Origin: Alphaproteobacteria bacterium
Lineage (GTDB): Bacteria > Pseudomonadota > Alphaproteobacteria > CAAGCB01 > CAG-977
Assembly: GCA_024413465.1 (NCBI GenBank)
Contig: JAKSVU010000002.1
Span: forward strand, 75,063 to 139,062
Direction of reading: 5' to 3'
Length of the DNA stretch: 64,000 nucleotides
Below the pieces are notes generated by a model. That model ran no database searches. It was not told where the DNA came from and was given only the letters and a program-made list of their open reading frames with translations. Positions 7,396-50,921 of this stretch are shown here, piece by piece. Within the stretch, counting starts at the first letter, position 1, and each line of letters opens with the position of its first letter. Made by a program: the position numbers and the translations under genes.

Positions 7396-7496
7396 TTAAG
7401 GGCAAAATATGCCTAGTTTGATGTGATATTAACTTTTTTTTAAATGAATCAAGATAAGCTGACTGTATATCTATGGATGACAGAAGGAATCAGGTT

Positions 7497-10400
7497 ATGC
7501 GAATAAAAAAGAATTGGAAATTTGCTGGATTGTTAATGCTTTCAACGGCATTGATGCCTGTTCCTGGATATACAAGTGCTACATTGGAAATTTCAAGCCA
7601 ACCCTTAGGGAATCAATACGTTGATGAGCGAACGGCCACGAATGATGTCGAAATTACATCCACTGGAGATATTAAGTTTAATTCAAGTTTTAAGGAACTT
7701 TGGTCATATTACAGTTATGTCACGAATGAGACAGGAGAAGTTTCTTTTGAAAGAATAGGTGACACAGTGACATATACACCTGAACAAGTTCAAAGTGCAC
7801 CGCAAGATTATAAAGGTGATATTGTTTTTAGTAGTAGCGGAAAATTTTCAGATTCGGATGATGCTGGGATACGAATTTACAAAGGGTTAGATGTTTTAGA
7901 GATTGGGCAAAGTGAAATTCAGACGCCGGGGAATATAATTATTCAAGCAGGAACTTTTAATTTTACTCAAAAACAAGGTGAGATTCTGTTAAGAAGATCT
8001 GCTAGTGGTAATTTTACGATTAATGGGGGAAAATTTGTTGTTGGAGAACATGGTAAAGCTCTCATCGGTCAAAAGTTTTATTCTGATGGTGGTTTTGGGA
8101 AAACAAGTACTAAACTTTTTATTAACTCAGGAACTTTAGATATTGCAGCTGGAGGAATTTTACAATTTAGTGGATATAACGTTCAATATGGAGGCGGTTC
8201 TACTAATAAAGTTATGATAACAGATTCTTCTGCGGGAATTTTATCCTTTATTGGGGGAAATAGTGAGTCAGCTAAAACCATAGATATTAAAGATTCAATT
8301 GATTTAAGCCAAGGGGAATTGAATTTATATTCTGGAAATATGATTTTAAATGCTGATGTAACCGTTAAAAAATTTAGTTTTGGAGATACAACGGATGTTG
8401 ACGCTACAATTTTAGGAATTAAAACTCCAGAAGGACAAATTTTGAACGTTGATAAAAGTCATCATCTGACAGTTTCTGAAGATTTTGTTATGAAATCAAA
8501 TTCTCATCTAATTGGTGATGGTGTTCTTTCACTAGAACATGGAGCGAGTGCGACTTTTGGTATTTTGGATTTTGGAACGATTTCAGTAAGTGGTCAAAAT
8601 GGAAGTGATGTCTATGGAACAATCACTTTTATGGGGGCAGCCAATTTGATTAATTTGGAAGCTGAGGGGTCAAAAATTCAAAATAATTCTAATTTAACAG
8701 TTGAAAATTTGACTTTAAAAGCAAATGGGGCTGATAAATCTGAACTTACTTTGGCAAAGGCTGATGAAGGTGGAACTGCATATTTGTATATAGACCATTT
8801 TGATATTGAAGGTGGAACGGTTGTATTTAATCAAGATAGTCAATTGTACATTAGGAAAGATGCGATAATTAATGAATTGACAACGATAAATGGAAAAGGA
8901 ACAATTAATTTTACCAGTGATCCTAGCAAGGAAACAGGTGTTTTAGAATTTAAAGATTCCGTTGAAAATTCAACAAAAACTATTTCAATTGCGGAAACAA
9001 TTAATTTAGTTGTTGGTAATGGAGGAACCGTAGATTTTAATTTATCAAATGGTTTGACTGGTTTTAATCTTGTAAGTGTAGAAGATGGACTGCTAAAGGT
9101 CTCTCAATCAGAAAATATAATACATAAACTTGTTTTGGGACAGGCAGCTTCTTCGAAATCTTTTGTGCTACAAGTTGCAGAAGGAGCTACTTTAAATTTT
9201 GATAAATATGCGTATATTTATCCTGGTGCTCAGCTGAATATTGATGGAACGTTATCCATTAATGGAACGACAGATGAAGGGGAATATGTTGTTTCTGGTA
9301 AATCATCAACGATAGCTGCTGCAAAGGGAACTGAAACAAATGTGGTTGGTTCTGGAACTTTACAATTAATTGGTAAGATCACTTCAAATGCATCCTATAA
9401 CATTGAAAATCTTGTTATTGGTGATGGAACAACGACGACGGTTACGCATGATACAAGAGGAACTTCTTCTTCAGATTGGTCAAGTCAACATTTCGCTCAA
9501 AATTTAACAGTCAATGCAAATGCAATTTTAAACATTGACGGTGGTGAATTGGATACAGCAGGATTAAGTGGTGATGGGACAATAGTTATCAATACAAATG
9601 GAATTTTAGGGGTTGATTCTACTTCAGAATTAACAGGCGTTGGTTCAATTTCAGGTGATGGAACGTTAAAATTATTAAACGCTACAAATATGACATTGTT
9701 AGCAGATTCATCGTCTTCTTTAAAGGTTTCAATCGGAACTGGAACTTTAACAATTGGAACGGATGGTTCAACATCAAATACAAAGTTTGGTTCATTGTCA
9801 TTTAATGATTCTGCGAATGGTGGTTCTGTTGTTATCAATGATGGAAGTTCACTTTCATTGGGCTCAATTAATGTTTCTGGGAAATCAAGTTTAATTGGAA
9901 AAGGGAGTTTATATTTAGCAACAGCTCCAGCAGATTATGGAAAAATTTCCTATATTTCTGGTGGGGGAAATTTAGATTTCAATAAAATTGAAATTACTTA
10001 TGGTGGTTTAATTGTTTCTAGATCAGGAAAAATTGAAGATTTAACTACAATCGGTTTACAAGTTTCTGGATCAGGAACGTTATTGAATGTTAATAAAATA
10101 ACGGCTGATGGAAATTCTGGGGGGATTGGTCTTACAGATGGGGCGTCACTTCAAGTTGAAAAATTTATGACTTCAAGTACTGTTGTTGGAACTGGAACGT
10201 TAGTGGCGGGAGAAGGACAATTTGATTCACATGCAGTTTCTGATTTTATGGGGTATGCTTATCCTGTGTTAGATACGCTAGATAAATCTTTGTCAGGAAT
10301 ATTGACTGTTCAGGGTGAGATAAATAATGTTCGTGTAACTCAAGGAACATTAGAAATAGAGGGAACTAATCATTTTTATGCGAGTGAGTTGACAAAGTTA

Positions 10401-13400
10401 GGTTTGACTGTTCAAAATATTGATGTTTTAAGTGGAGAATTAAAGAATTCATCTAATGGCGGAGAAGGGTTAATAGTTTCTAATTCTGGACATTTTGGGA
10501 ATGGAACAATTGGTGGATTAAGTAAATTAACTGCAGCTAATAATGATGTTAGATTCACATTTGATGGTACAAATACCCTTGTAAGTTATGATATGAATAA
10601 TACGAATTCTGTTGTTCAGATTAATCAAGGGGGAACCTTAAATTTAAAAGATTGGTCAAATGAAACGACTGATCATAAGTTTATAGGGGCAGGAACTTTA
10701 TCTGTGCAAAAGGATTCAGGAGAATTAAAGTCCACAATTGAAAATTTAGGTGTGTTAGAAATTAATGCTTCTTCCTTTACGTTATCGTCACAATTGAATA
10801 ATTTGGGTGAATTAGATTTAGAACAAGGTGGTACAACAATTGCTTCAAATGGAACTGTTGGAACTTTAGTAATTGATCAATCTTCAACAATTGTTAATGG
10901 AACACTTACAATTACGAATAAACTAGACGTTCAAGAAGATACTTCAGGTACAGGTACGTTCATTATTCAATCTGGTTCTGCTGATTTTGGTGCTAACTTT
11001 GCAGGTAATTTAGAAATTGGTTCTGTTGCAAATATCAAAGAGAATATTTCACTTGGAAATGTTACATTCTCTTCAAGTAACGGTGGAACATTGAATATTG
11101 AAGAAGGAAAAACGTTAACTTTGAGTTCTTTGACAACAAGTGGAAGAAACGTTGTTAATGGTGCAGGTGTTTTAGCTGTTAGTGGTTCAGGATCAAGTTT
11201 TGGTGCTCCAATCAATGGATTAGGAAAGTTAGATTTAAAAACGTCTAGTTCAGATGCTACTTTTAATCGAAGTGCAAATATTTCAGAAATTTCATTTGCC
11301 GGAGGTAGTTCAGTTACAGTAAATTCTGGATATACGTTGACTGTATCGACGTTGTCAGGAACAGGAACTCCGAGTGTCCAGGGAGCTGGAACGTTTTCTT
11401 TTGATGGTAATACAAGTGAGTCAGATTTGAACGTTGGTAGTGGATTAGGAACGTTAAACGTTATTTCTGGTAAAATAAAAATAGTTGAAGACGGAACAAT
11501 CGGAAACGTGTCTTTGTCTATGGGTAATTTAGCTGTTGCAGATGGTAAGACTTTGACGGTAAATAACATAGATGGAGCAGGTGAATTATCTGCTGAGGGA
11601 AGTTATTCTGCTAAGTTAGTTCTTAACAATTCTGCAAATTTTGTAAAGAACGTTTCTAACTTTAATACGATTATGTCAACGGGAAGAACTGTTTTTCAGA
11701 ATGGAATTGATGTTACAAACTTGAATATAGCTTCAGGAATGACTTCAATTAATGGAACTTCAAATACAATTGGAACGCTAACAATTGATGGAACTTTGGA
11801 TATTGGTGGGTATCAAAAAGTAAATGCTACAAATGTTACCTTTAATCCAGGTTCTTCCTTAAATTTGAATATTAATCCAGAATCGCTAGCTTTAGGGCAA
11901 ATTCAATCTTCAAATGTAACAATTAATCCTAATGTAGCTTTAAATTTGAATATCGGATATGGTGTGAAAAAGGATGGGATGGAATTCCGAGTTGTTGATG
12001 GCGGTGTTCCTAATGGTGAATTTTCAGTGGTTTCAAATAATCGCTATAATTTGACAAATACAAATTGTTCAGGTGGCTTGTGTTATAAAATTGTTCAGAC
12101 TGCAACAGGGGAAGAAGTTGTAAATCAGTCTGGAGGAAGTAACAATGATGCTGCAGTTGCAAGGGCTGTTTTAGATAGTGAAATTTTCAAACCAACAGAT
12201 AGATTCTACCCAGTTGCGGTACGATTGTATGATTTGTCTTTATATGGAAGTGCCAAGGAATATCGTGATGCTTTGACAACAGTTGCACCTGATGTGACAG
12301 GATCTGCGATGAAGCAATCTATTGACGTCCAATCACAAATCACAAATATTGCTTTTTCAAGATTACAACGGTTGGGGAGTAATTTAGGATCAAGAGCAAC
12401 AAATTATGGTTATAAAAAAGCCTATGGACATGCAGGTGGTAATTACTATAAATATCGTGGTAATTCTAGAAGTTCGTACAGAAGTAGTGATTTAGGTGAT
12501 ATCAAAAAATATAAGCGAAACAATGAATATGAATATTATCGTGTAAAACCGACTACCGTCCAAAAGTATGATGCTAGAAAGTATAATCGTTATCAAGATG
12601 TAACACCTACAACAGGAAAAGTAGAAACTTCGGTTGCTCCAAATTATCAAAAGTATTATGGAGCTTCATCTTCGGATCCAAAACGTTATGAAAGATTTAA
12701 AAATTCCTATGGTGTGTATGAAAATAATGAACGTTTAGATTCTACAGATCCGAAGAAATATTCTCGTTCTCGTGATACCATTTTATATCAACAAGAAAAA
12801 ACACAAACTGTTTTGACTCCGGAAAAGAAGTATCAGCGTAAGATTTTACAGCCATCATCAAATGGAACGGTTGTTGCAGATTCTATGAAATATAAACATA
12901 CAGGATATCAACCTTTCCAAAATAGACTTGATTTTGGCGTATGGGCAGAAGGTTTCTTCAATACAAACGAATATAAAAATGAAAATGATCCAGATGGGTT
13001 CTCTTCGGATACAACCGGATTTGCAACAGGTATGGATATCTCATTTCTTGATATGTTTGCATTCGGCGTTGGGTATTCAAATTCACAAACAGATTTGAAG
13101 ACGTTGAATCGTAAGACTGACGTTAATGGAAATACGTTCTTTATGTATGGTATGGTTAAGCCTAATAATTTCTACGTCAGTGGATTCTTGGGCTTTACAT
13201 CAAATGAATATAAAGAACATAAGAAGATTAAAGGCATTAAAGAAATCGAAGATAATTATGATGGTAGTTCAGTCGGAGCTCAGATTAATATTGGTTATGA
13301 TTTAGGACAATGGCATCCAGAAGTTGGTGTTCGCTATACCAATGCAAAATTTGATGCAAGAACTGATTCTGTTGGTCAAAAGGTTGATTCATACAGTGGT

Positions 13401-13718
13401 ACCGTTGGTACGGCATTGGCAAATGTAACATATGAGACGGATTTACGTAGAACTGATTCCGATGTTGTTTCTGCTGATTTTAGCGTAGGAGTTTCTTATG
13501 ATTTCAAAACAGCAAAACAAAAAAATACTGTTGCTTTAGAAAATGGATCAAGTTATACCGTTGAAGGAGCTTCTTTGGATAAGTTTGGTATTGAAGCCGG
13601 AGCTGGTATTTCATATAAGGCAAATGATCACGTTGAATTTCGTGCTGAATATGATTGCGATTATAAAAAAGATTTCATATCACATTCTTTGAAAGCACAT
13701 GTTCGTTATAACTTTTAA
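7497..13718 (+). CDS. giant classical (type Va) autotransporter with beta-helical passenger and C-terminal beta-barrel
   Basis: The ORF opens at 7473. ATG 7497 is preferred (RBS AGGAA; signal peptide MRIKKNWKFAGLLMLSTALMPVPGYTSA). There are ~1600 aa of Gly/Thr/Ser/Asn-rich pseudo-repeats (GTL, NGT, LxV), then a Y/K-rich linker. The last ~300 aa have alternating hydrophobic beta-strand patterning and end in the aromatic residue ...RYNF. Confidence 0.85.
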   Translation: MRIKKNWKFAGLLMLSTALMPVPGYTSATLEISSQPLGNQYVDERTATNDVEITSTGDIKFNSSFKELWSYYSYVTNETGEVSFERIGDTVTYTPEQVQSAPQDYKGDIVFSSSGKFSDSDDAGIRIYKGLDVLEIGQSEIQTPGNIIIQAGTFNFTQKQGEILLRRSASGNFTINGGKFVVGEHGKALIGQKFYSDGGFGKTSTKLFINSGTLDIAAGGILQFSGYNVQYGGGSTNKVMITDSSAGILSFIGGNSESAKTIDIKDSIDLSQGELNLYSGNMILNADVTVKKFSFGDTTDVDATILGIKTPEGQILNVDKSHHLTVSEDFVMKSNSHLIGDGVLSLEHGASATFGILDFGTISVSGQNGSDVYGTITFMGAANLINLEAEGSKIQNNSNLTVENLTLKANGADKSELTLAKADEGGTAYLYIDHFDIEGGTVVFNQDSQLYIRKDAIINELTTINGKGTINFTSDPSKETGVLEFKDSVENSTKTISIAETINLVVGNGGTVDFNLSNGLTGFNLVSVEDGLLKVSQSENIIHKLVLGQAASSKSFVLQVAEGATLNFDKYAYIYPGAQLNIDGTLSINGTTDEGEYVVSGKSSTIAAAKGTETNVVGSGTLQLIGKITSNASYNIENLVIGDGTTTTVTHDTRGTSSSDWSSQHFAQNLTVNANAILNIDGGELDTAGLSGDGTIVINTNGILGVDSTSELTGVGSISGDGTLKLLNATNMTLLADSSSSLKVSIGTGTLTIGTDGSTSNTKFGSLSFNDSANGGSVVINDGSSLSLGSINVSGKSSLIGKGSLYLATAPADYGKISYISGGGNLDFNKIEITYGGLIVSRSGKIEDLTTIGLQVSGSGTLLNVNKITADGNSGGIGLTDGASLQVEKFMTSSTVVGTGTLVAGEGQFDSHAVSDFMGYAYPVLDTLDKSLSGILTVQGEINNVRVTQGTLEIEGTNHFYASELTKLGLTVQNIDVLSGELKNSSNGGEGLIVSNSGHFGNGTIGGLSKLTAANNDVRFTFDGTNTLVSYDMNNTNSVVQINQGGTLNLKDWSNETTDHKFIGAGTLSVQKDSGELKSTIENLGVLEINASSFTLSSQLNNLGELDLEQGGTTIASNGTVGTLVIDQSSTIVNGTLTITNKLDVQEDTSGTGTFIIQSGSADFGANFAGNLEIGSVANIKENISLGNVTFSSSNGGTLNIEEGKTLTLSSLTTSGRNVVNGAGVLAVSGSGSSFGAPINGLGKLDLKTSSSDATFNRSANISEISFAGGSSVTVNSGYTLTVSTLSGTGTPSVQGAGTFSFDGNTSESDLNVGSGLGTLNVISGKIKIVEDGTIGNVSLSMGNLAVADGKTLTVNNIDGAGELSAEGSYSAKLVLNNSANFVKNVSNFNTIMSTGRTVFQNGIDVTNLNIASGMTSINGTSNTIGTLTIDGTLDIGGYQKVNATNVTFNPGSSLNLNINPESLALGQIQSSNVTINPNVALNLNIGYGVKKDGMEFRVVDGGVPNGEFSVVSNNRYNLTNTNCSGGLCYKIVQTATGEEVVNQSGGSNNDAAVARAVLDSEIFKPTDRFYPVAVRLYDLSLYGSAKEYRDALTTVAPDVTGSAMKQSIDVQSQITNIAFSRLQRLGSNLGSRATNYGYKKAYGHAGGNYYKYRGNSRSSYRSSDLGDIKKYKRNNEYEYYRVKPTTVQKYDARKYNRYQDVTPTTGKVETSVAPNYQKYYGASSSDPKRYERFKNSYGVYENNERLDSTDPKKYSRSRDTILYQQEKTQTVLTPEKKYQRKILQPSSNGTVVADSMKYKHTGYQPFQNRLDFGVWAEGFFNTNEYKNENDPDGFSSDTTGFATGMDISFLDMFAFGVGYSNSQTDLKTLNRKTDVNGNTFFMYGMVKPNNFYVSGFLGFTSNEYKEHKKIKGIKEIEDNYDGSSVGAQINIGYDLGQWHPEVGVRYTNAKFDARTDSVGQKVDSYSGTVGTALANVTYETDLRRTDSDVVSADFSVGVSYDFKTAKQKNTVALENGSSYTVEGASLDKFGIEAGAGISYKANDHVEFRAEYDCDYKKDFISHSLKAHVRYNF

Positions 13719-15152: not shown

Positions 15153-15227
15153 TGGCTCCGCGAGTAGGATTCGAACCTACGACCAGCCGGTTAACAGCCG
15201 GCTGCTCTACCGCTGAGCTATCGCGGA
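15153..15227 (-). tRNA. tRNA-Asn (anticodon GTT)
   Basis: The reverse complement folds as a cloverleaf: acceptor TCCGCGA/TCGCGGA, anticodon loop CTGTTAA, T-arm GGTTCGAATCC, 3' CCA encoded. Confidence 0.85.
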
Positions 15228-15236
15228 ATGATAGCT

Positions 15237-15310
15237 TGGAGGCCGAAACCGGAATCGAACCGATATACAAGGATTTGCAGTCCTCTGCATAACCATTCTG
15301 CCATTCGGCC
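15237..15310 (-). tRNA. tRNA-Cys (anticodon GCA)
   Basis: Reverse complement GGCCGAATGGCAGAATGG...CTGCAAA...GGTTCGATTCC...CCA. Confidence 0.85.
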
Positions 15311-37864: not shown

Positions 37865-39202
37865 TTATCTACTAATCTGTTTGGATTGTGCAACCAACAT
37901 TGTAACTGAAGAATTGCTTTTAGATTTTTGTTCAGCTAAATTATCGGAAGCTTTCAAATTTAATTTTTTTATTCCTTGTTGAACAGATTTTATCATGTCA
38001 TTTGAAAGAGGAATATCAACAGTTGACGTATATAATTTTGCAGAATCAACTTTTAAACGATCTGAAATAGATTTTGGTAATTCGACTTTATCAACAATTT
38101 CAGGATTAAATCCCATACGAATTTTTTTTGCCATGAACAAATAAAGTTTTTCATCTTGAAGTGTTTGTTCTGCCTGAGGATTTTTTTCTCCTTTAATAGC
38201 GGATTGATTTATTTGTTCTACGGCATCTATTGTTTTCAAGATAGAATAATAGATAGGCTTGTCATTCGTAGCAAAAGAACACTTTTTACTGATATCTTGG
38301 CGTGTTTCTGTAATGTATTTATCCGCATAAAAATGATCATTTTTGTTTTTCAAATCTCGTAAAGGCATTTGAGCAACAGTATCGTCGTTATCTTGTCCAT
38401 AACAAACAGCCCCAGCATTATAAATTTCTAAAAATGCTTGAGTGAGATTGTGAATTTGTTTTGCTTTTGGTGTTAAAACGAATTGTTCGAAATCGGGAAC
38501 TTTATCTCCGCCACAGAATGCTTTGATATCTTTTGGTGTGCCATGAACAAGAGGACCTTTTTCATACGAATTTTGACCTAAACAACTGATAACACTTTCA
38601 ACGTCATACCCATTTTCATAGGCTGCTGTAATTCGTTCATCATCATACCAACCACGATAAGCCCCAGCTACACCGTCCTTTTCCCAACCATCTGCAATTT
38701 GAGTATACGTTCCTGCAAAAGCATCACGGGGAGCTGTGTCACCAAGCTCTGCCCATTCATTACAAGCTTTATAAGCTTGAGATTGAGCATCAGCTTCTGT
38801 TGCACGATAAATCATCTGATTTGTTTCATAATCTAAATGTTGGCTTTCATATTCACCACGACCTGCATGGTCTTGCCACAAATGGCGAGCTTCATGAACC
38901 AGACAAGACCGTAATTTGTCTATTCCACATTTTTTATTTAGCGTAATAATGTTTTGGCTTGGTGTATAGCAACCAACAGATTTTCCTAAATCATCAGCCA
39001 ATTTAAAAGGAGTTTCATGTTTTTTCATTTCATCCAAAGCTTCACGACCTGTTGGAATTTTATTCAAGGATTGAAGAATTTGTTCAACCATTAAATAGTC
39101 GCTTTGTTTGCAAATGACGGTTATGCCTTCAATTTCCCATTCGTGTGGACGTTCTTTTGTCTGAAAATCACTTTGTAAAAATATATCGTTAAAGGCACCC
39201 AT
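37865..39202 (-). CDS. HExxHxxQD zincin-like (DUF4157-like) protein, paralog 1 (445 aa)
   Basis: GCYTPSQNIITLNKKCGIDKLRSCLVHEARHLWQD. No signal peptide is evident. It lies 9 bp downstream of paralog 2 on the same strand. Confidence 0.55.
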   Translation of the reverse strand: MGAFNDIFLQSDFQTKERPHEWEIEGITVICKQSDYLMVEQILQSLNKIPTGREALDEMKKHETPFKLADDLGKSVGCYTPSQNIITLNKKCGIDKLRSCLVHEARHLWQDHAGRGEYESQHLDYETNQMIYRATEADAQSQAYKACNEWAELGDTAPRDAFAGTYTQIADGWEKDGVAGAYRGWYDDERITAAYENGYDVESVISCLGQNSYEKGPLVHGTPKDIKAFCGGDKVPDFEQFVLTPKAKQIHNLTQAFLEIYNAGAVCYGQDNDDTVAQMPLRDLKNKNDHFYADKYITETRQDISKKCSFATNDKPIYYSILKTIDAVEQINQSAIKGEKNPQAEQTLQDEKLYLFMAKKIRMGFNPEIVDKVELPKSISDRLKVDSAKLYTSTVDIPLSNDMIKSVQQGIKKLNLKASDNLAEQKSKSNSSVTMLVAQSKQISR

Positions 39203-39211
39203 TTTAATACC

Positions 39212-40315
39212 TTATCTGTTGTTTAACTTGTTTTGTAAAGCTTGTTGCATTGCTACGGATTTTTTTGAATCTCTCGTTGTTTTAGGGGCAGATCTAGATC
39301 CGGCACATATCATTGCAGAAGGATCATTTTCTATATTATCAAAAGTTTTTTTGTTTTCAGTCGAATACATTTTCATATAAGACTTGTCTTCTTTTGAAAA
39401 CAAGAAATGAGAACGGAAATTTTTCTCAATCATTTTAATTGATTCAAAACCAGCAGGAGAAAGTGATAGAGCTTCTGGAGAAGTCAAATAATCAGCATCA
39501 ATTTTTTTATTTAATCCTGGTGTTATGAAAATTTTATCTAACACGTCTTGGTTTGATATTTGCCCACGCAAAGAATCAGATTGAGTAAAATTTTGCTCTC
39601 TACCTTTTAAACCATACTTAATCGCATAAATATGATCTTTTTCATAAGATTGTTGATAGTGAGGATAGTTATACCATTCTTTGAAAGCTTTCTCACTTGC
39701 TTTATCCAAATCTCCAGATTCACTCATTTCTTTATCAAAAACTTGATACATTGGGAATTGAGCAACATGGGACAAAACTTCAGGATATTTATCTTTTATT
39801 TGATAAGCAAAACGAGCTTCTTCAGTCCAAGCTGCAGCTTCACAAGCACGATTAAATTTGAATTGGTCTGCAATATTTAATGAAGATGAATCACTTAATA
39901 ATTGATTTGAATCTGTATCTTGAACAGCATGAACCATTTCATGAAATGCAGTCGCAGCCATTCCTGCTATACTAGAATGTTGGCAAGGACATAACATAAT
40001 TCTTTTATTTCCACCAGACATTGATCCATCAGCATCACCACCATAAGCATTAAACGTAAATTTAAAGCCGGCAGCAGCAACTCTATCAATCAAATCTTTG
40101 CCTGCAGGAACGGAAGAAATAACATCAAATACCTGTTTTAATTGTTCTTTTTCAACTTCTTGAGGATCGCGAACATTTCTAACAGTTCTAGAAACATAAC
40201 CTGCCGTCAAAACGTTTTCAAAAGCAACCTTTAAAGTTCCTTCCATATCTTGACGATTAGGAACAGGTTGTTCGACTTCTTTTTTCTTTCCGAATATATC
40301 TGACAAGAAAGACAT
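39212..40315 (-). CDS. HExxHxxQD zincin-like (DUF4157-like) protein, paralog 2 (367 aa)
   Basis: GGNKRIMLCPCQHSSIAGMAATAFHEMVHAVQD. The RBS is AAGGA. Confidence 0.55.
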   Translation of the reverse strand: MSFLSDIFGKKKEVEQPVPNRQDMEGTLKVAFENVLTAGYVSRTVRNVRDPQEVEKEQLKQVFDVISSVPAGKDLIDRVAAAGFKFTFNAYGGDADGSMSGGNKRIMLCPCQHSSIAGMAATAFHEMVHAVQDTDSNQLLSDSSSLNIADQFKFNRACEAAAWTEEARFAYQIKDKYPEVLSHVAQFPMYQVFDKEMSESGDLDKASEKAFKEWYNYPHYQQSYEKDHIYAIKYGLKGREQNFTQSDSLRGQISNQDVLDKIFITPGLNKKIDADYLTSPEALSLSPAGFESIKMIEKNFRSHFLFSKEDKSYMKMYSTENKKTFDNIENDPSAMICAGSRSAPKTTRDSKKSVAMQQALQNKLNNR

Positions 40316-45551: not shown

Positions 45552-47033
45552 ATGATTGTAGCTCAAATTAATCCAATTGCCGGTGATTTAGAAGGTAATT
45601 TGGCTAAAATGTTCCACATTGCAGACCAATGTACAACAGCTCCTGGCGAAACTTTAATTTTCCCAGCTTACGCTTTGACAGGGTATCCATTAGGTGATTT
45701 GGCTTGCGAAAAAGACTTTATCGTTCGCGTTCATCAAATGGTTGAAAAATTATTCCACAATGAACATCCGGTTATTACGGCTATTCCTGATGGCAGTGGA
45801 AAAGCGACTCCTGTTATGGTTACTGCTAAAGGTGTTCAATTTGGAACGAAGTTTACCATTATTCCAGGATTGACAGTGGCTGTTTCCGTTGGTTTCGAAC
45901 CAGTCGATTGCGATGGAACAGATAAATTGATTATTTTGGATGCTCAACCATATCGCGTTAGTGGTGCATTAGAAACGTTAGAATATGCTCGTATGTTTGC
46001 AAGTCGTATTCGTTTACCTTTGGCTTATTCCAACTTGGTTGGCGCAAGCGATGGAAACGTCTTTGCCGGCGGTTCATTTATGTTGGATTGTGATGGTGGT
46101 TTCGTTTCTTGTTTGCCTTTGTGGCAAGAAGGTTTCGCTGATATTGGTGAAATTCATTGGCCATGGACAGAAGAACCAGAAAATACTTGGCATGCTTTGA
46201 CAATGGGTGTCAAAGACTTTGTTGCTAAAAATGGATTTAAAGACGTCTTAGTCGGTTTGTCAGGTGGTTTTGACAGTGCTTTGTGTGCTGCAATTGCTGT
46301 TGATGCTGTTGGTGCAAGTCATGTCAAAACAGTTATGATGCCGTCTCCATATACTAGTGAAGATAGTTTGAAAGACGCAAAAGCTGTTGCTGATTGTTTG
46401 GGCGTTTCTTATGACGTTTTGCCAATTAATGATTTGATGAATTGCTTTGACAAGACTTTGTCCCCAATGTTTAAAGGAATGGAAAAAGATACGACAGAAG
46501 AAAATATTCAGGCTCGTATTCGTGGAACGATGTTGATGGCATTGTCGAACAAGTTTAAAGCTTTGTTGTTGTCAACTTCAAATAAATCAGAAGCTGCCGT
46601 AGGTTATTCAACTTTGTATGGTGATATGTGCGGTGGTTTGGCTCCGATAAAGGATTTGTATAAAACTCGTGCGTATGATTTAGCGATTTGGAGAAATAAT
46701 AATCATCCTCGTTGGATCGATAATGATATCAAAAAGGTTATGCCTTATGAATTGATTACAAAAGCTCCATCAGCTGAATTGCGTCCAGATCAAAAAGATT
46801 CAGACAGTTTACCATCTTATGACAAATTGGATAAGATGTTGGAAATGTTTATTGAACAAGATTCTTCTATTGAAGAAGTGATTGCCGCTGGATATGATGA
46901 AAAAGACGTCAAACGCGTGTTCAATTTATTACATAAAGCAGAATTTAAACGCCAACAGAGTGCTGTTGGAATCAAGATGTCCAAACGGTCTTTTGATGCC
47001 GATTGGATTTACCCAATTACGAAAAAGGTATAA
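45552..47033 (+). CDS. nadE: NAD+ synthetase (short CN-hydrolase-like N-domain plus NAD synthase domain)
   Basis: PP-loop SGGFDSA and the NadE C-terminal domain. The RBS is GAGG. Confidence 0.85.
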   Translation: MIVAQINPIAGDLEGNLAKMFHIADQCTTAPGETLIFPAYALTGYPLGDLACEKDFIVRVHQMVEKLFHNEHPVITAIPDGSGKATPVMVTAKGVQFGTKFTIIPGLTVAVSVGFEPVDCDGTDKLIILDAQPYRVSGALETLEYARMFASRIRLPLAYSNLVGASDGNVFAGGSFMLDCDGGFVSCLPLWQEGFADIGEIHWPWTEEPENTWHALTMGVKDFVAKNGFKDVLVGLSGGFDSALCAAIAVDAVGASHVKTVMMPSPYTSEDSLKDAKAVADCLGVSYDVLPINDLMNCFDKTLSPMFKGMEKDTTEENIQARIRGTMLMALSNKFKALLLSTSNKSEAAVGYSTLYGDMCGGLAPIKDLYKTRAYDLAIWRNNNHPRWIDNDIKKVMPYELITKAPSAELRPDQKDSDSLPSYDKLDKMLEMFIEQDSSIEEVIAAGYDEKDVKRVFNLLHKAEFKRQQSAVGIKMSKRSFDADWIYPITKKV

Positions 47034-48390: not shown

Positions 48391-49758
48391 ATGAAACTAT
48401 ATGTATCAAATACGATGACACGCACCAAAGAAGAATTTATTCCTTTGGATGAAAAACACGTTCGTATGTATGTGTGTGGTCCTACGGTTTATGATAGAGC
48501 TCACATTGGAAATGCACGCCCGATTATCGTGTTTGATACGTTGTATCGTTTGTTAAAATATCTTTATCCAAAGGTAACTTACGTTCGTAATATTACTGAC
48601 GTTGATGATAAAATTATCAAAAAATCTCAGGAAAGTGGTGAACCGATTAATGTGATTACTGAAAAAACAACTCGTTTTTTCCATGAAGATATTTCACACT
48701 TAAACGTTTTAAATCCTAATGTTGAACCAAAAGCGACTGCTCATATTCAAGATATGATTGCTTTAGTTCAGAGATTGGTTGATAACGGGCATGCTTACGT
48801 TGCAGAAGGACACGTTTTGTTTAGCGTTGAAAGTATGCCAACTTATGGAAGATTATCCAAAAAATCTATGAAAGAATTGCGGGCAGGAGCAAGAGTTGAA
48901 GTAGCTCCATATAAAAAAGATCCTGCAGATTTTGTTTTATGGAAACCATCTGATGCAAATCAACCAGGGTGGGATAGTCCATGGGGATTTGGTCGTCCAG
49001 GTTGGCATTTGGAATGTTCTGCAATGAGCTCCAAATATTTAGGCGAAACGTTTGATATTCATGGTGGTGGTTTGGATTTAATTTTCCCTCATCACGAAAA
49101 TGAAATTGCTCAATCTTGTTGTGCTTTCGGTCATGATTTTTATGCAAAATATTGGATGCATAATGGCCATTTGATGGTAAATGGTGAAAAAATGTCTAAA
49201 TCATTGGGGAATTTTTTCACTATTCGTGAAATTTTAGATCAGGTTCCTGGTGAGGCTTTCCGTTTATATACATTGGGGACTCATTATCATCAACCGTTGA
49301 ACTGGATGGCTGACGGATTAAAGCAAGCAAAAGGAACAATGGATCGTTTCTATACGGCTTTAAGAAATACACCAGATGTTGATTTGTCCGATGCTAAACC
49401 TGCAGAAGAAGTGATTGAAGCTTTGTGTGATGATTTGAATACACCAAAGGCAATTTCTGTTTTACATGCTTTGGCAACCCAATTGAATAAAGATAAATCT
49501 GCAGAAACGAAAAAAACGTTATTGGCTTCTGCTCAACTGATGGGATTATTATATCAATCTGCAGAAGAATGGTTTAAAAATCAATCTGCAGAAGAAGGTT
49601 CTTTATCTGAAGCCGATATTTTAGCTTTAATTCAGAAACGTGCAGATGCTCGTAAGGCAAAAGATTTTGCAACGGCTGATGCTGTTCGTAAAGAATTGGC
49701 TGATAAAGGTGTTGTGATTGAAGATACGCCTAATGGGACTCAGTGGAAACGCGTATAA
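48391..49758 (+). CDS. cysS: cysteine--tRNA ligase
   Basis: HIGH motif ([16 protein letters not shown]), KMSKS motif and a zinc-binding Cys pattern. Confidence 0.9.
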
Positions 49759-49780
49759 TTAAATTGATTTTATAAGGCAT

Positions 49781-50195
49781 CTGTCGTGTGCTTCCGGTAC
49801 TTGAATGCTCACGTACAATATGTACGTTCCGCTTCTGCGTTTCGGTTCACACTTCCATCTGCACTTCTAAAATCAATTTTGGGAAATCTGTCGTGTGCTT
49901 CCGGTACTCGAATGCTCACGTACAGTATGTACGCTCCGCTTCTGCGTTTCGGTTCATACTTCCATCTGTACTTCTAAAATCAATTTTTGGAAATCTGTCG
50001 TGTGCTTCCGATACTCGAATGCTCACGTACAGTATGTACGCTCCGCTTCTGCGTTTCGGTTCATACTTCCATCTGCACTTCTAAAATCAATTTTTGGAAA
50101 TCTGTCGTGTGCTTCCGGTACTCGAATGCTCACGTACGGTATGTACGCTCCGCTTCTGCGTTTCGGTTCACACTTCCATCTGTACTTCTAAAATC
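49781..50195. repeat. tandem repeat, 107-bp unit x ~3.9 copies (units begin 49781, 49888, 49995, 50102), each with an internal hairpin
   Basis: Exact 107-nt periodicity of ctgtcgtgtgcttccggtac...; copies are >90% identical. Each unit carries the hairpin acgtaca-ata-tgtacgt (gta loop in copies 2-4). Confidence 0.9.
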
Positions 50196-50323
50196 TGATT
50201 TGAGTAAGCGTCTGTTGAATATTTTTGATTGAAATTAGATTTTGTCATTTTTTTGTCACTATTCTTTTTTTGAAAATTGTCGTATATTAAACTTAGATTA
50301 GAAAATTTTTGGGAGAGGTCGCG

Positions 50324-50866
50324 ATGGTAAAAAATTATAGATTTTCATTGTTGACGGCAGGTTTTGTTTTGTTATGTAGCTCTGTTCAGGCAGAAGATTT
50401 GTCCGCAGATCCTTGGACACAACCAAATCCAACGGAAAACGTTGTTAAGGTTCAACAAGTTGGTCCTGTGATTTATGGAGCTCAACCTTATCAACCAACA
50501 TATGAAGGTGGGGCTTCAAACGTTTGGAATACGAAAATGCCAGAATTTACAGGTGAAATGACAACTTGGAATGATGGGCAAGGACAAAAGGTTAATGCTC
50601 CTGAAGTAAATATGCATAACATTCTTTCAATAACTGAACATTTAAGAAGAATGGGATATAAGATTCCAACCAGTTTTGAAGAAAAAGTAAAAGCTGCTCC
50701 TGAAGCTGTTCGTGTTAGAATTAAACAAGCTATGTCTGATATGGCGTCTGCAAGTGATCCTTTTTCAAAATCAGCACAGTTTGCTAGAAAAACATTGGAA
50801 CAGGAAACAGGGATGACGTTTGATAACGTTATTGGAAATTCGCTTGATTTATTATCATCAAAATAA
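50324..50866 (+). CDS. secreted/periplasmic hypothetical protein
   Basis: RBS GGGAGAGG followed by a signal peptide MVKNYRFSLLTAGFVLLCSSVQA. Confidence 0.55.
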   Translation: MVKNYRFSLLTAGFVLLCSSVQAEDLSADPWTQPNPTENVVKVQQVGPVIYGAQPYQPTYEGGASNVWNTKMPEFTGEMTTWNDGQGQKVNAPEVNMHNILSITEHLRRMGYKIPTSFEEKVKAAPEAVRVRIKQAMSDMASASDPFSKSAQFARKTLEQETGMTFDNVIGNSLDLLSSK

Positions 50867-50885
50867 GATAAAAGTTTTAGTGCAG

Positions 50886-50921
50886 AAAGGGCAGAATGAA
50901 AATATTCTGCTCTTTTTTTTA
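50886..50921. terminator. bidirectional Rho-independent terminator
   Basis: agggcagaat gaaaat attctgctc followed by T8. The T-run overlaps the stop of the minus-strand marR-like gene. Confidence 0.6.

Follow-up and report, generated by a model that had tools for sequence, protein, structure and literature searches.

A 64-kb window (64,000 nucleotides of contig JAKSVU010000002.1, from an uncultured alphaproteobacterium) carries, between the cysteinyl-tRNA synthetase gene cysS and a gene for a 180-aa signal-peptide protein (here called sp180), an array of 107-bp tandem units that differs in copy number between conspecific genomes. The core of the unit is a hairpin in which base pairs are preserved by compensatory changes, and the unit is restricted to two sister species. 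The reading that we favour, while granting it somewhat less than an even chance, is that a lineage-specific RNA hairpin module, acting in cis to insulate or stabilise transcripts between cysS and sp180, has undergone a genuine tandem duplication that varies between strains. From sequence comparison we infer that the unit is transcribed, that the + strand is the one that is read, and that the role of the hairpin is one of insulation.

The array and its copy number in conspecific strains

Tandem Repeats Finder, proposed as a check by a first-pass annotation of the window, recovered a single strong array at positions 49779-50195 of the + strand (period 107, 3.9 copies, 96% matches, 0% indels, score 764). 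No other tandem repeat of the window comes close, the rest scoring 55 or less. The four units (Table 1) align without gaps at a mean column identity of 96%, with seven variable sites among them within columns 1-94 and a departure of unit 4 from column 95 on, and a repeat search of the window gave a spacing of 107-107-107 between unit starts. The periodicity and the four unit starts annotated at first pass are thus borne out, as is the setting downstream of cysS and ahead of the signal-peptide ORF (open reading frame): the array occupies the 565-bp spacer between the stop of cysS and the ATG of sp180. No further copy of the unit was found in the 64-kb window by repeat search, blastn or a covariance model. 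The G+C content of the array (43-46%) is above that of typical spacer DNA of the window, and its + strand is pyrimidine-rich, a skew opposite to that of the flanking genes.

Table 1. Coordinates of the array, its components and the neighbouring features in the window
Feature	Position	Strand	Basis or remark
cysS (cysteinyl-tRNA synthetase)	48391..49758	+	ORF; Pfam tRNA-synt_1e, DALR_2 and CysS_C on identical product
5' flank	49756..49780	+	imperfect direct repeat of unit tail and 3' flank; 4/2000 shuffles score as high
Inverted repeat, 16 nt	49761-49776 with 49864-49879		94% complementary; brackets unit 1
Unit 1	49781-49887	+	
Unit 2	49888-49994	+	
Unit 3	49995-50101	+	
Unit 4	50102-50208	+	
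Unit 1 hairpin	49786..49852	+	RNAalifold, single folds, pair counts; tip palindrome 49811-49827
Unit 2 hairpin	49893..49959	+	RNAalifold, single folds, pair counts
Unit 3 hairpin	50000..50066	+	RNAalifold, single folds, pair counts
Unit 4 hairpin	50107..50173	+	RNAalifold, single folds, pair counts
Promoter-like TTCACA-N16-TAAAAT	49846..49873 (unit 1); 49953-49980; 50060-50087; 50167-50194	+	consensus scan
sp180 proximal promoter and leader block	50240..50323	+	similarity across genera; outside array
sp180	50324..50866	+	180-aa ORF with Sec-type signal peptide
Intrinsic terminator after sp180	50884..50917	+	15-bp stem, then T-run

The array was first described as a long-unit, non-coding intergenic repeat with artefactual ORFs, and both statements hold. 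A coding reading is rejected because the period is not a multiple of 3, so that the + strand ORFs of the array pass through all three frames, because the ORFs of 98 aa, 63 aa and 36 aa have no match in Pfam or PADLOC, and because single-copy alleles destroy them. The + strand contains one stop codon per unit, compared to about 4.5 expected from composition by our own estimate, a difference that is not significant. On the - strand, a 36-codon ORF recurs in each unit (49916-50026 and neighbours); since 107 = 111 - 4, its GTG start overlaps the TGA stop of its neighbour (GTGA). The predicted peptide is hydrophilic and matches no family, its Shine-Dalgarno sequence is badly positioned, and the single-copy strains have it only in truncated form; these ORFs are probably meaningless.

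Three Logan assemblies from different samples (L082, L083 and L084), with 95-98.5% nucleotide identity to the window, have a cysS-sp180 spacer of 244 bp, compared to 565 bp in the window. The difference of 321 bp is exactly 3 x 107: each of these assemblies has one unit, with private substitutions, between flanks identical to those of the window. The predicted difference in copy number between conspecific genomes is therefore supported, four against one, and the locus shows all three defining features of an intergenic variable-number tandem repeat (VNTR, or bacterial minisatellite), namely head-to-tail units of tens of bp or more, a non-coding location, and a strain-dependent copy number, the last of these seen in two states (1 and 4) and in metagenome assemblies throughout. 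The count of exactly four copies in the window is likewise that of a metagenome assembly and is to be taken as provisional. The 244-bp or 565-bp spacer between conserved genes makes the locus a ready strain-typing marker for the species.

The term "hypervariable", also applied to the array at first pass, is not justified by these data. The units differ mutually by 2-6 substitutions, which is about equal to the divergence between strains and indicates slow turnover; the array is variable, not demonstrably hypervariable. A raised mutation rate in the unit was considered and withdrawn, because the strains themselves are only 95-98% identical genome-wide. The internal junction tails resemble the tail of L085, an assembly of the sister species, and not the derived terminal tail that is common to the window and L082. 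Together with the divergence among units, this suggests that the duplication is older than the split of these strains and that the single-copy alleles are contractions.

It is highly improbable that the four copies were assembled in error from strain variants of a single-copy unit. The window belongs to a metagenome-assembled genome (MAG), its sp180 being identical to MCQ2965516.1, a protein of an NCBI metagenome-assembled "Alphaproteobacteria bacterium", and the three other assemblies of the species show one copy, as such an error would predict. Against this, the internal junctions, in which TCAATTTTTGGAAAT is followed directly by CTGTCG, are not present in the single-copy alleles, whose tail is TCTGATTTGAGTAAG; the multi-copy state was therefore not assembled from single-copy templates, and reads spanning a real junction must exist. 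In addition, the units bear distinct combinations of single-nucleotide differences, with two junction variants, and assemblers usually collapse tandem repeats and seldom expand them. The junction k-mer AATTTTTGGAAATCTGTCGTG is a marker of at least two units. The contigs with one copy run through the locus, which is unusual for a de Bruijn assembler over a multi-copy repeat, and thus the single copy is probably real, too.

The edges of the array offer a route for changes in copy number. The 5' flank repeats the unit tail and the 3' flank imperfectly, and therefore a single-copy locus is already flanked by imperfect direct repeats of about 30 nt around the hairpin, on which slippage or unequal recombination could naturally act. 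The microhomology TCTGTYG was rejected as the end-points of the duplication, because it implies a period of 110 bp instead of 107. Five changes within 10 nt set the tail of the last unit apart from the internal tails. This derived tail forms a 12-nt inverted repeat (92% complementary) between 50190-50201 and 50232-50243, 30 nt downstream, and the change looks like a templated (quasi-palindrome) mutation or like the outcome of selection for leader structure.

The hairpin core of the unit

Using six distinct versions of the unit (the four of the window, u1-u4, and those of L082 and L085), RNAalifold predicts one imperfect hairpin of 67 nt at unit columns 6-72, whose 23 pairs make up three helices. 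Folding the consensus sequence by itself gives the same structure at minimum energy, and an RNAfold-type check of single units, also suggested at first pass, gives it for each unit at -17 to -20 kcal/mol. The remaining approximately 40 nt of each unit form a pyrimidine-rich linker. The first-pass annotation had placed a hairpin with a 7-bp stem and a 3-nt loop in every unit. This element is present as a palindrome, but it is merely the tip of the 67-nt hairpin, and it is perfect in unit 1 only (ACGTACA-ATA-TGTACGT); the tip of units 2 and 3, ACGTACA-GTA-TGTACGC, pairs at six positions and has an A/C at its base, and a third variant, not listed at first pass, is found in unit 4 (ACGTACG-GTA-TGTACGC). 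The long hairpin with comparative support is what the present analysis adds.

On the + strand, 135 of 135 pair cells hold a standard pair: 127 are Watson-Crick and 8 are G·U. Three pairs have changed on both sides in L085: 19-60 from AU to GC, 27-52 from GC to AU, and 37-41 from AU to UA. The five one-sided pair changes, found among the units and L082, all yield G·U on the + strand. Altogether, 11 substitution events fall in paired columns with 0 broken pairs. When the 19 observed substitution events were placed randomly on the structure derived from the consensus only, zero broken pairs were obtained in 0.16% of trials, and at least three compensatory pairs in 0.1%. Read on the - strand, the mirrored structure breaks in 8 cells, and the covariation term is -0.08 there, compared to -1.14 for the + strand. 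No bulge or internal loop of the hairpin differs among the six versions. The pairs are thus kept through compensatory substitutions in the manner of a structured cis-acting RNA (simulation P about 0.001-0.002, for a small sample).

Distribution of the unit, promoter-like sites and neighbouring genes

The unit is present in the sister species L085, which is about 85% identical to the window. The L085 contig stops inside the unit, and this is equally compatible with a multi-copy array or with low coverage. The units of the window share 83-87% identity with that of L085, as much as the mostly coding flanks do (84-86%). Neither a third species, L088 (~82% identical to both the window and L085), nor any of the more distant relatives examined has the unit. 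Since it is confined to two sister species, the unit was gained once, in their ancestor, within a fast-evolving spacer. The nearest genomes, with CysS proteins 77-81% identical, are uncultured alphaproteobacterial MAGs with origins, where stated, in faeces or gut, e.g., horse faeces. The order nadE-gltX-cysS-sp180 is kept in 7/7 of them and in two relatives recovered through homologues of sp180; the cysS-sp180 spacer of these relatives measures about 90-200 bp, and no unit-like sequence was found in it by blastn or the covariance model.

Wider searches were negative as well. A 39-nt unit pattern, exact or degenerate, had no match in genome contigs or metagenome contigs; a 34-nt pattern spanning all known variants had none in metagenome or viral contigs; blastn of the unit against plasmids and phages gave no match; and the covariance model found no further copy in the related loci of 22 sources. 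At the gathering score, Rfam matched only two tRNAs in the window, and at E <= 10 the array region produced only a chance match to SmY of 11.5 bits; hence the unit belongs to no Rfam family, including the tandem alphaproteobacterial small RNAs such as cuckoo/CcsR. The two tRNAs, tRNA-Asn(GTT) and tRNA-Cys(GCA), are adjacent (15153-15310, - strand) and are the sole Rfam or ARAGORN matches in the window.

Two relatives have a canonical terminator after cysS. In L088 (SRR18398425 contig, positions 640-662), it lies directly after the gene, AAAGGCAGA-AACAG-TCTGCCTTT and then TTGTTTTTT; in L004, it overlaps the cysS stop. The L088 spacer (~250 bp) is wholly unrelated to that of the window and has its terminator where the window has the unit; the spacer has been exchanged wholesale between species, and both edges remain conserved. 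No canonical terminator was found after cysS in the window or L082, nor any terminator-like site between cysS and sp180 in the window, so that the hairpin does not qualify as an intrinsic (Rho-independent) terminator. The terminator after sp180 shows that ordinary terminators are in use in this genome.

The cysS gene is the last of a conserved nadE-gltX-cysS run 5' of the array, and sp180 follows it directly in every relative examined. We found 59 homologues of sp180 (P0001-P0059), signal-peptide proteins of ~180-230 aa found only in uncultured alphaproteobacteria. Invariant residues of the family include W31, G62-G63, the N66-x-W68-N69-T70 region and H106-L-R108. No match to sp180 was found in Pfam or PADLOC, and its AlphaFold2 model, built with a 57-sequence alignment, has a pLDDT (predicted local distance difference test score) of only 48.6. 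The block of ~85 bp upstream of sp180 contains a TTTTGTCA-N7-TTTTGTCAC direct repeat (50240-50300) and a GGGAGAGG ribosome-binding site; it is identical in L082-84, nearly so in L085 and L088, and recognisable in L002-L008. This conservation across genera identifies the block as the own promoter and leader of sp180. The first-pass annotation had the last unit decaying into the promoter region of the downstream gene, which is not the case, as the cross-genus block starts ~45 bp past the array. The TTTTGTCA-N7-TTTTGTCAC block aligns with ...GACATATATTTGTAACTATTCC... of relatives at ~69% nucleotide identity, and the repeat may be an operator or an unusual promoter.

Each unit contains a sigma-70-like match directed at sp180 (TTCACA or TTCATA, N16, TAAAAT; score 10/12 or 9/12). 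As promoter evidence these sites are weak: in this AT-rich genome such matches are no commoner than in shuffles (72 vs 84 +/- 9), and the -35 hexamer sits inside the hairpin stem. We consider it improbable that the array is a multiplied distal promoter/operator of sp180, in which every unit supplies a promoter together with the 7-3-7 palindrome as a site for a dimeric regulator and four units raise or buffer transcription. Such an arrangement would fit the orientation of the sites, the retention of both hexamers in L082 and L085 while the spacer between them is altered, and the survival of the tip palindrome's symmetry through an A-T to T-A swap in L085. However, the position of the -35 hexamer within the stem could alone explain its conservation, the compensation covers 23 pairs over 67 nt, far beyond any operator, and sp180 has its own cross-genus promoter block 3' of the array.

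The same sites bear on a small-RNA gene array, in which the promoter in the tail of one unit and the hairpin of the next would together produce a trans-acting CU-rich small RNA at a dose that rises with the number of copies. The conserved structure of the hairpin, the end of the promoter-like site about 12 nt before the next unit and about 18 nt before its hairpin, and the CUUCC and CUUCU motifs of the linker, which could pair with Shine-Dalgarno sequences, are in line with such a gene. We regard it as very improbable, given the weak promoter evidence, the lack of a terminator after the hairpin and of any Rfam match even at E = 10. Moreover, strains with one unit have their sole promoter-like site 3' of the hairpin and could not make such an RNA.

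Among the annotated ORFs at 37.9-63.2 kb, which are housekeeping and envelope genes, no mobile-element genes were seen. With its TTG start, the longest gltX ORF (460 aa) shares 31 nt with the end of nadE (47003-47033). In conspecific contigs, GltX is called as 448 aa and starts after nadE; therefore, the true gltX start is probably downstream of the TTG. The adjacent paralogous ORFs at 37865-39202 and 39212-40315 (- strand) both match DUF6782, a putative metallopeptidase family. The 2081-aa ORF at 7473-13718 (+ strand) ends in an autotransporter beta-domain (PF03797) and contains two families of internal DNA repeats, D4 and D12, around 9.2-11.9 kb; it probably encodes a large, repetitive surface adhesin.

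A possible role of the hairpin and comparison with known systems

Extragenic palindromes of the repetitive extragenic palindromic (REP) type and the intercistronic hairpins of alphaproteobacterial operons act as a 3'-end barrier, a stabiliser or a terminator-like insulator. In the cis-acting reading that we prefer, the duplicated entity would be a lineage-specific 107-bp intergenic module with the 67-nt hairpin as its core. The hairpin would be kept by selection, most likely as RNA read on the + strand, the direction shared by cysS and sp180, and slippage or unequal recombination between the ~30-nt flanking direct repeats would create, expand and contract the array. On transcripts that run out of nadE-gltX-cysS toward sp180, which has its own promoter, the hairpin would act in cis and serve as a 3'-end barrier, stabiliser or terminator-like insulator ahead of that gene; four units instead of one may then mean stronger insulation or stabilisation and an altered coupling of sp180 expression to the upstream genes. 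We prefer this reading because of the compensatory upkeep of the pairs, the conservation of the unit at the level of its flanks, the co-orientation with both genes, and the terminators in L088 and L004. Modulation of sp180 or attenuation of read-through by the array, as proposed at first pass, is plausible in view of the canonical terminators that L088 and L004 have in the corresponding spacer, after cysS.

A bolder version, which we find rather doubtful, is that the hairpin is a previously undescribed, genus-restricted structured RNA under purifying selection and that its amplification from one to four copies is a matter of dosage, either as a tunable RNA insulator/stabiliser placed between a housekeeping operon and the gene of a secreted protein or as a multicopy small RNA. 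If the hairpin acts at the RNA level, the locus would be a clean natural case of repeat-number variation that works via RNA structure, whereas most known bacterial cases of repeat-number variation work via promoter spacing or reading frame. It would also lie in an uncultured gut lineage, beside the conserved secreted protein sp180.

Several observations weigh against a cis-acting RNA. The comparison includes six sequences only, from three lineages, and four of these are paralogues within one genome. Single-unit folding energies are equally good on the - strand. C to T on the + strand also predominates among the changes at unpaired sites; mutation bias could therefore produce the G·U-only pattern, which makes the call of the + strand weak. 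When folded in long context, the units pair among themselves and do not give four independent hairpins, and for the single-copy locus the fold is no better than that of shuffled sequence (z = -0.83). Instead of a U-tract, UUCCAUCU comes after the hairpin, which the terminator scan did not recognise as a terminator. The argument from position is soft, too, because several relatives likewise have no terminator after cysS. As to copy number, the assemblies with one unit were built from short reads, and the window is itself part of a MAG. Finally, compensatory changes in an inverted repeat may come from template switching at the DNA level (quasipalindrome correction), which can operate without selection on RNA.

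This last point is the basis for reading the array as a neutral minisatellite, i.e., quasi-palindromic spacer DNA that was duplicated by slippage, has no function, and retains its hairpin through template switching between the arms. We consider this rather unlikely. The spacer between cysS and the sp180 promoter block is unconserved among genera, its length and content varying freely, and one copy is evidently enough in three strains. There is no match to a known RNA family, no canonical terminator and no significant promoter signal. The tip of L085 has four changes within 5 nt, and both these and the five changes in the terminal tail look templated. On the other hand, template switching tends toward more perfect palindromes, whereas the bulges and internal loops are identical in all versions, which argues against palindrome correction as the source of the double changes. 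Two of the three double changes can go via G·U intermediates, the classical RNA route. The absence of broken pairs among the events in paired columns, and the conservation of the unit between two species to the same extent as the coding flanks, also count against neutrality. A neutral repeat would simply add to the list of bacterial minisatellites. Overall, the locus is a real but fairly ordinary variable-number repeat.

Among known systems, clustered regularly interspaced short palindromic repeats (CRISPR) do not fit, because the repeat takes in the full 107-bp period and leaves no unique spacers. A type III toxin-antitoxin-like locus, with the array as a ToxI-like antitoxin RNA whose processed units neutralise the downstream protein, is almost certainly the wrong model and is effectively refuted. 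The likeness to ToxI arrays is one of geometry only: tandem structured non-coding repeats lie immediately upstream of, and co-oriented with, a gene for a protein of ~180 aa. ToxI-type units are ~36 nt long, a third of the 107-nt unit described here. No match to a ToxN/AbiQ-type endoribonuclease was found downstream in Pfam or PADLOC; sp180 is secreted, its orthologues occur in every relative examined, always without the array, and conspecific strains have one unit. An attenuating terminator between the array and sp180 was not found.

Mycobacterial interspersed repetitive units (MIRUs) are dispersed at dozens of loci, and small ORFs in the same orientation overlap the flanking stop and start codons. 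The unit of the array, in contrast, occurs at one locus, with no other copy in the 64 kb or in the related loci searched with the covariance model, and its only unit-sized ORF is on the opposite strand. MIRU-VNTR loci consist of 40-100-bp non-coding tandem units between co-oriented genes, with a strain-variable copy number (Supply et al.). The array resembles them in all of these respects, its non-coding units being in tandem between co-oriented genes and variable in number among strains.

REP elements and bacterial interspersed mosaic elements (BIMEs), enterobacterial repetitive intergenic consensus (ERIC) sequences and Correia elements are imperfect palindromes in transcribed spacers after a stop codon, sometimes clustered, that form RNA hairpins and have been proposed as exonuclease barriers or as a means of uncoupling genes. 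REP-type elements occur in tens to hundreds of dispersed copies and are linked to REP-associated tyrosine transposases (RAYTs). The element of the array is likewise an imperfect palindrome in a spacer after a stop codon and, by analogy, would most plausibly work like mRNA 3' stabilisers of the REP/BIME type. Unlike these elements, it occupies a single locus; neither a REP/BIME nor a miniature inverted-repeat transposable element (MITE) is indicated, as no target-site duplication was seen by eye and no transposase or other mobile-element gene was found among the annotated ORFs at 37.9-63.2 kb.

The Wolbachia repeats VNTR-105 and VNTR-141 are intergenic, contain hairpins in each period, are restricted to a lineage and differ in copy number among close strains (Riegler et al. 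2012, PMC3287509). VNTR-105 has a 105-bp period, with four complete periods in wMel, and the hairpins of these repeats, 23 bp with a 9-bp stem, were discussed as triggers of DNA slippage (PMC3287509). The present array has no sequence relationship to the Wolbachia VNTRs, its hairpin is 67 nt long with compensatory changes between species, and it is seen at 1 and 4 copies only, with no graded series. Being alphaproteobacterial, intergenic, non-coding, of long period (105 vs 107 bp), strain-variable and lineage-restricted, Wolbachia VNTR-105 is the closest described analogue of the array.

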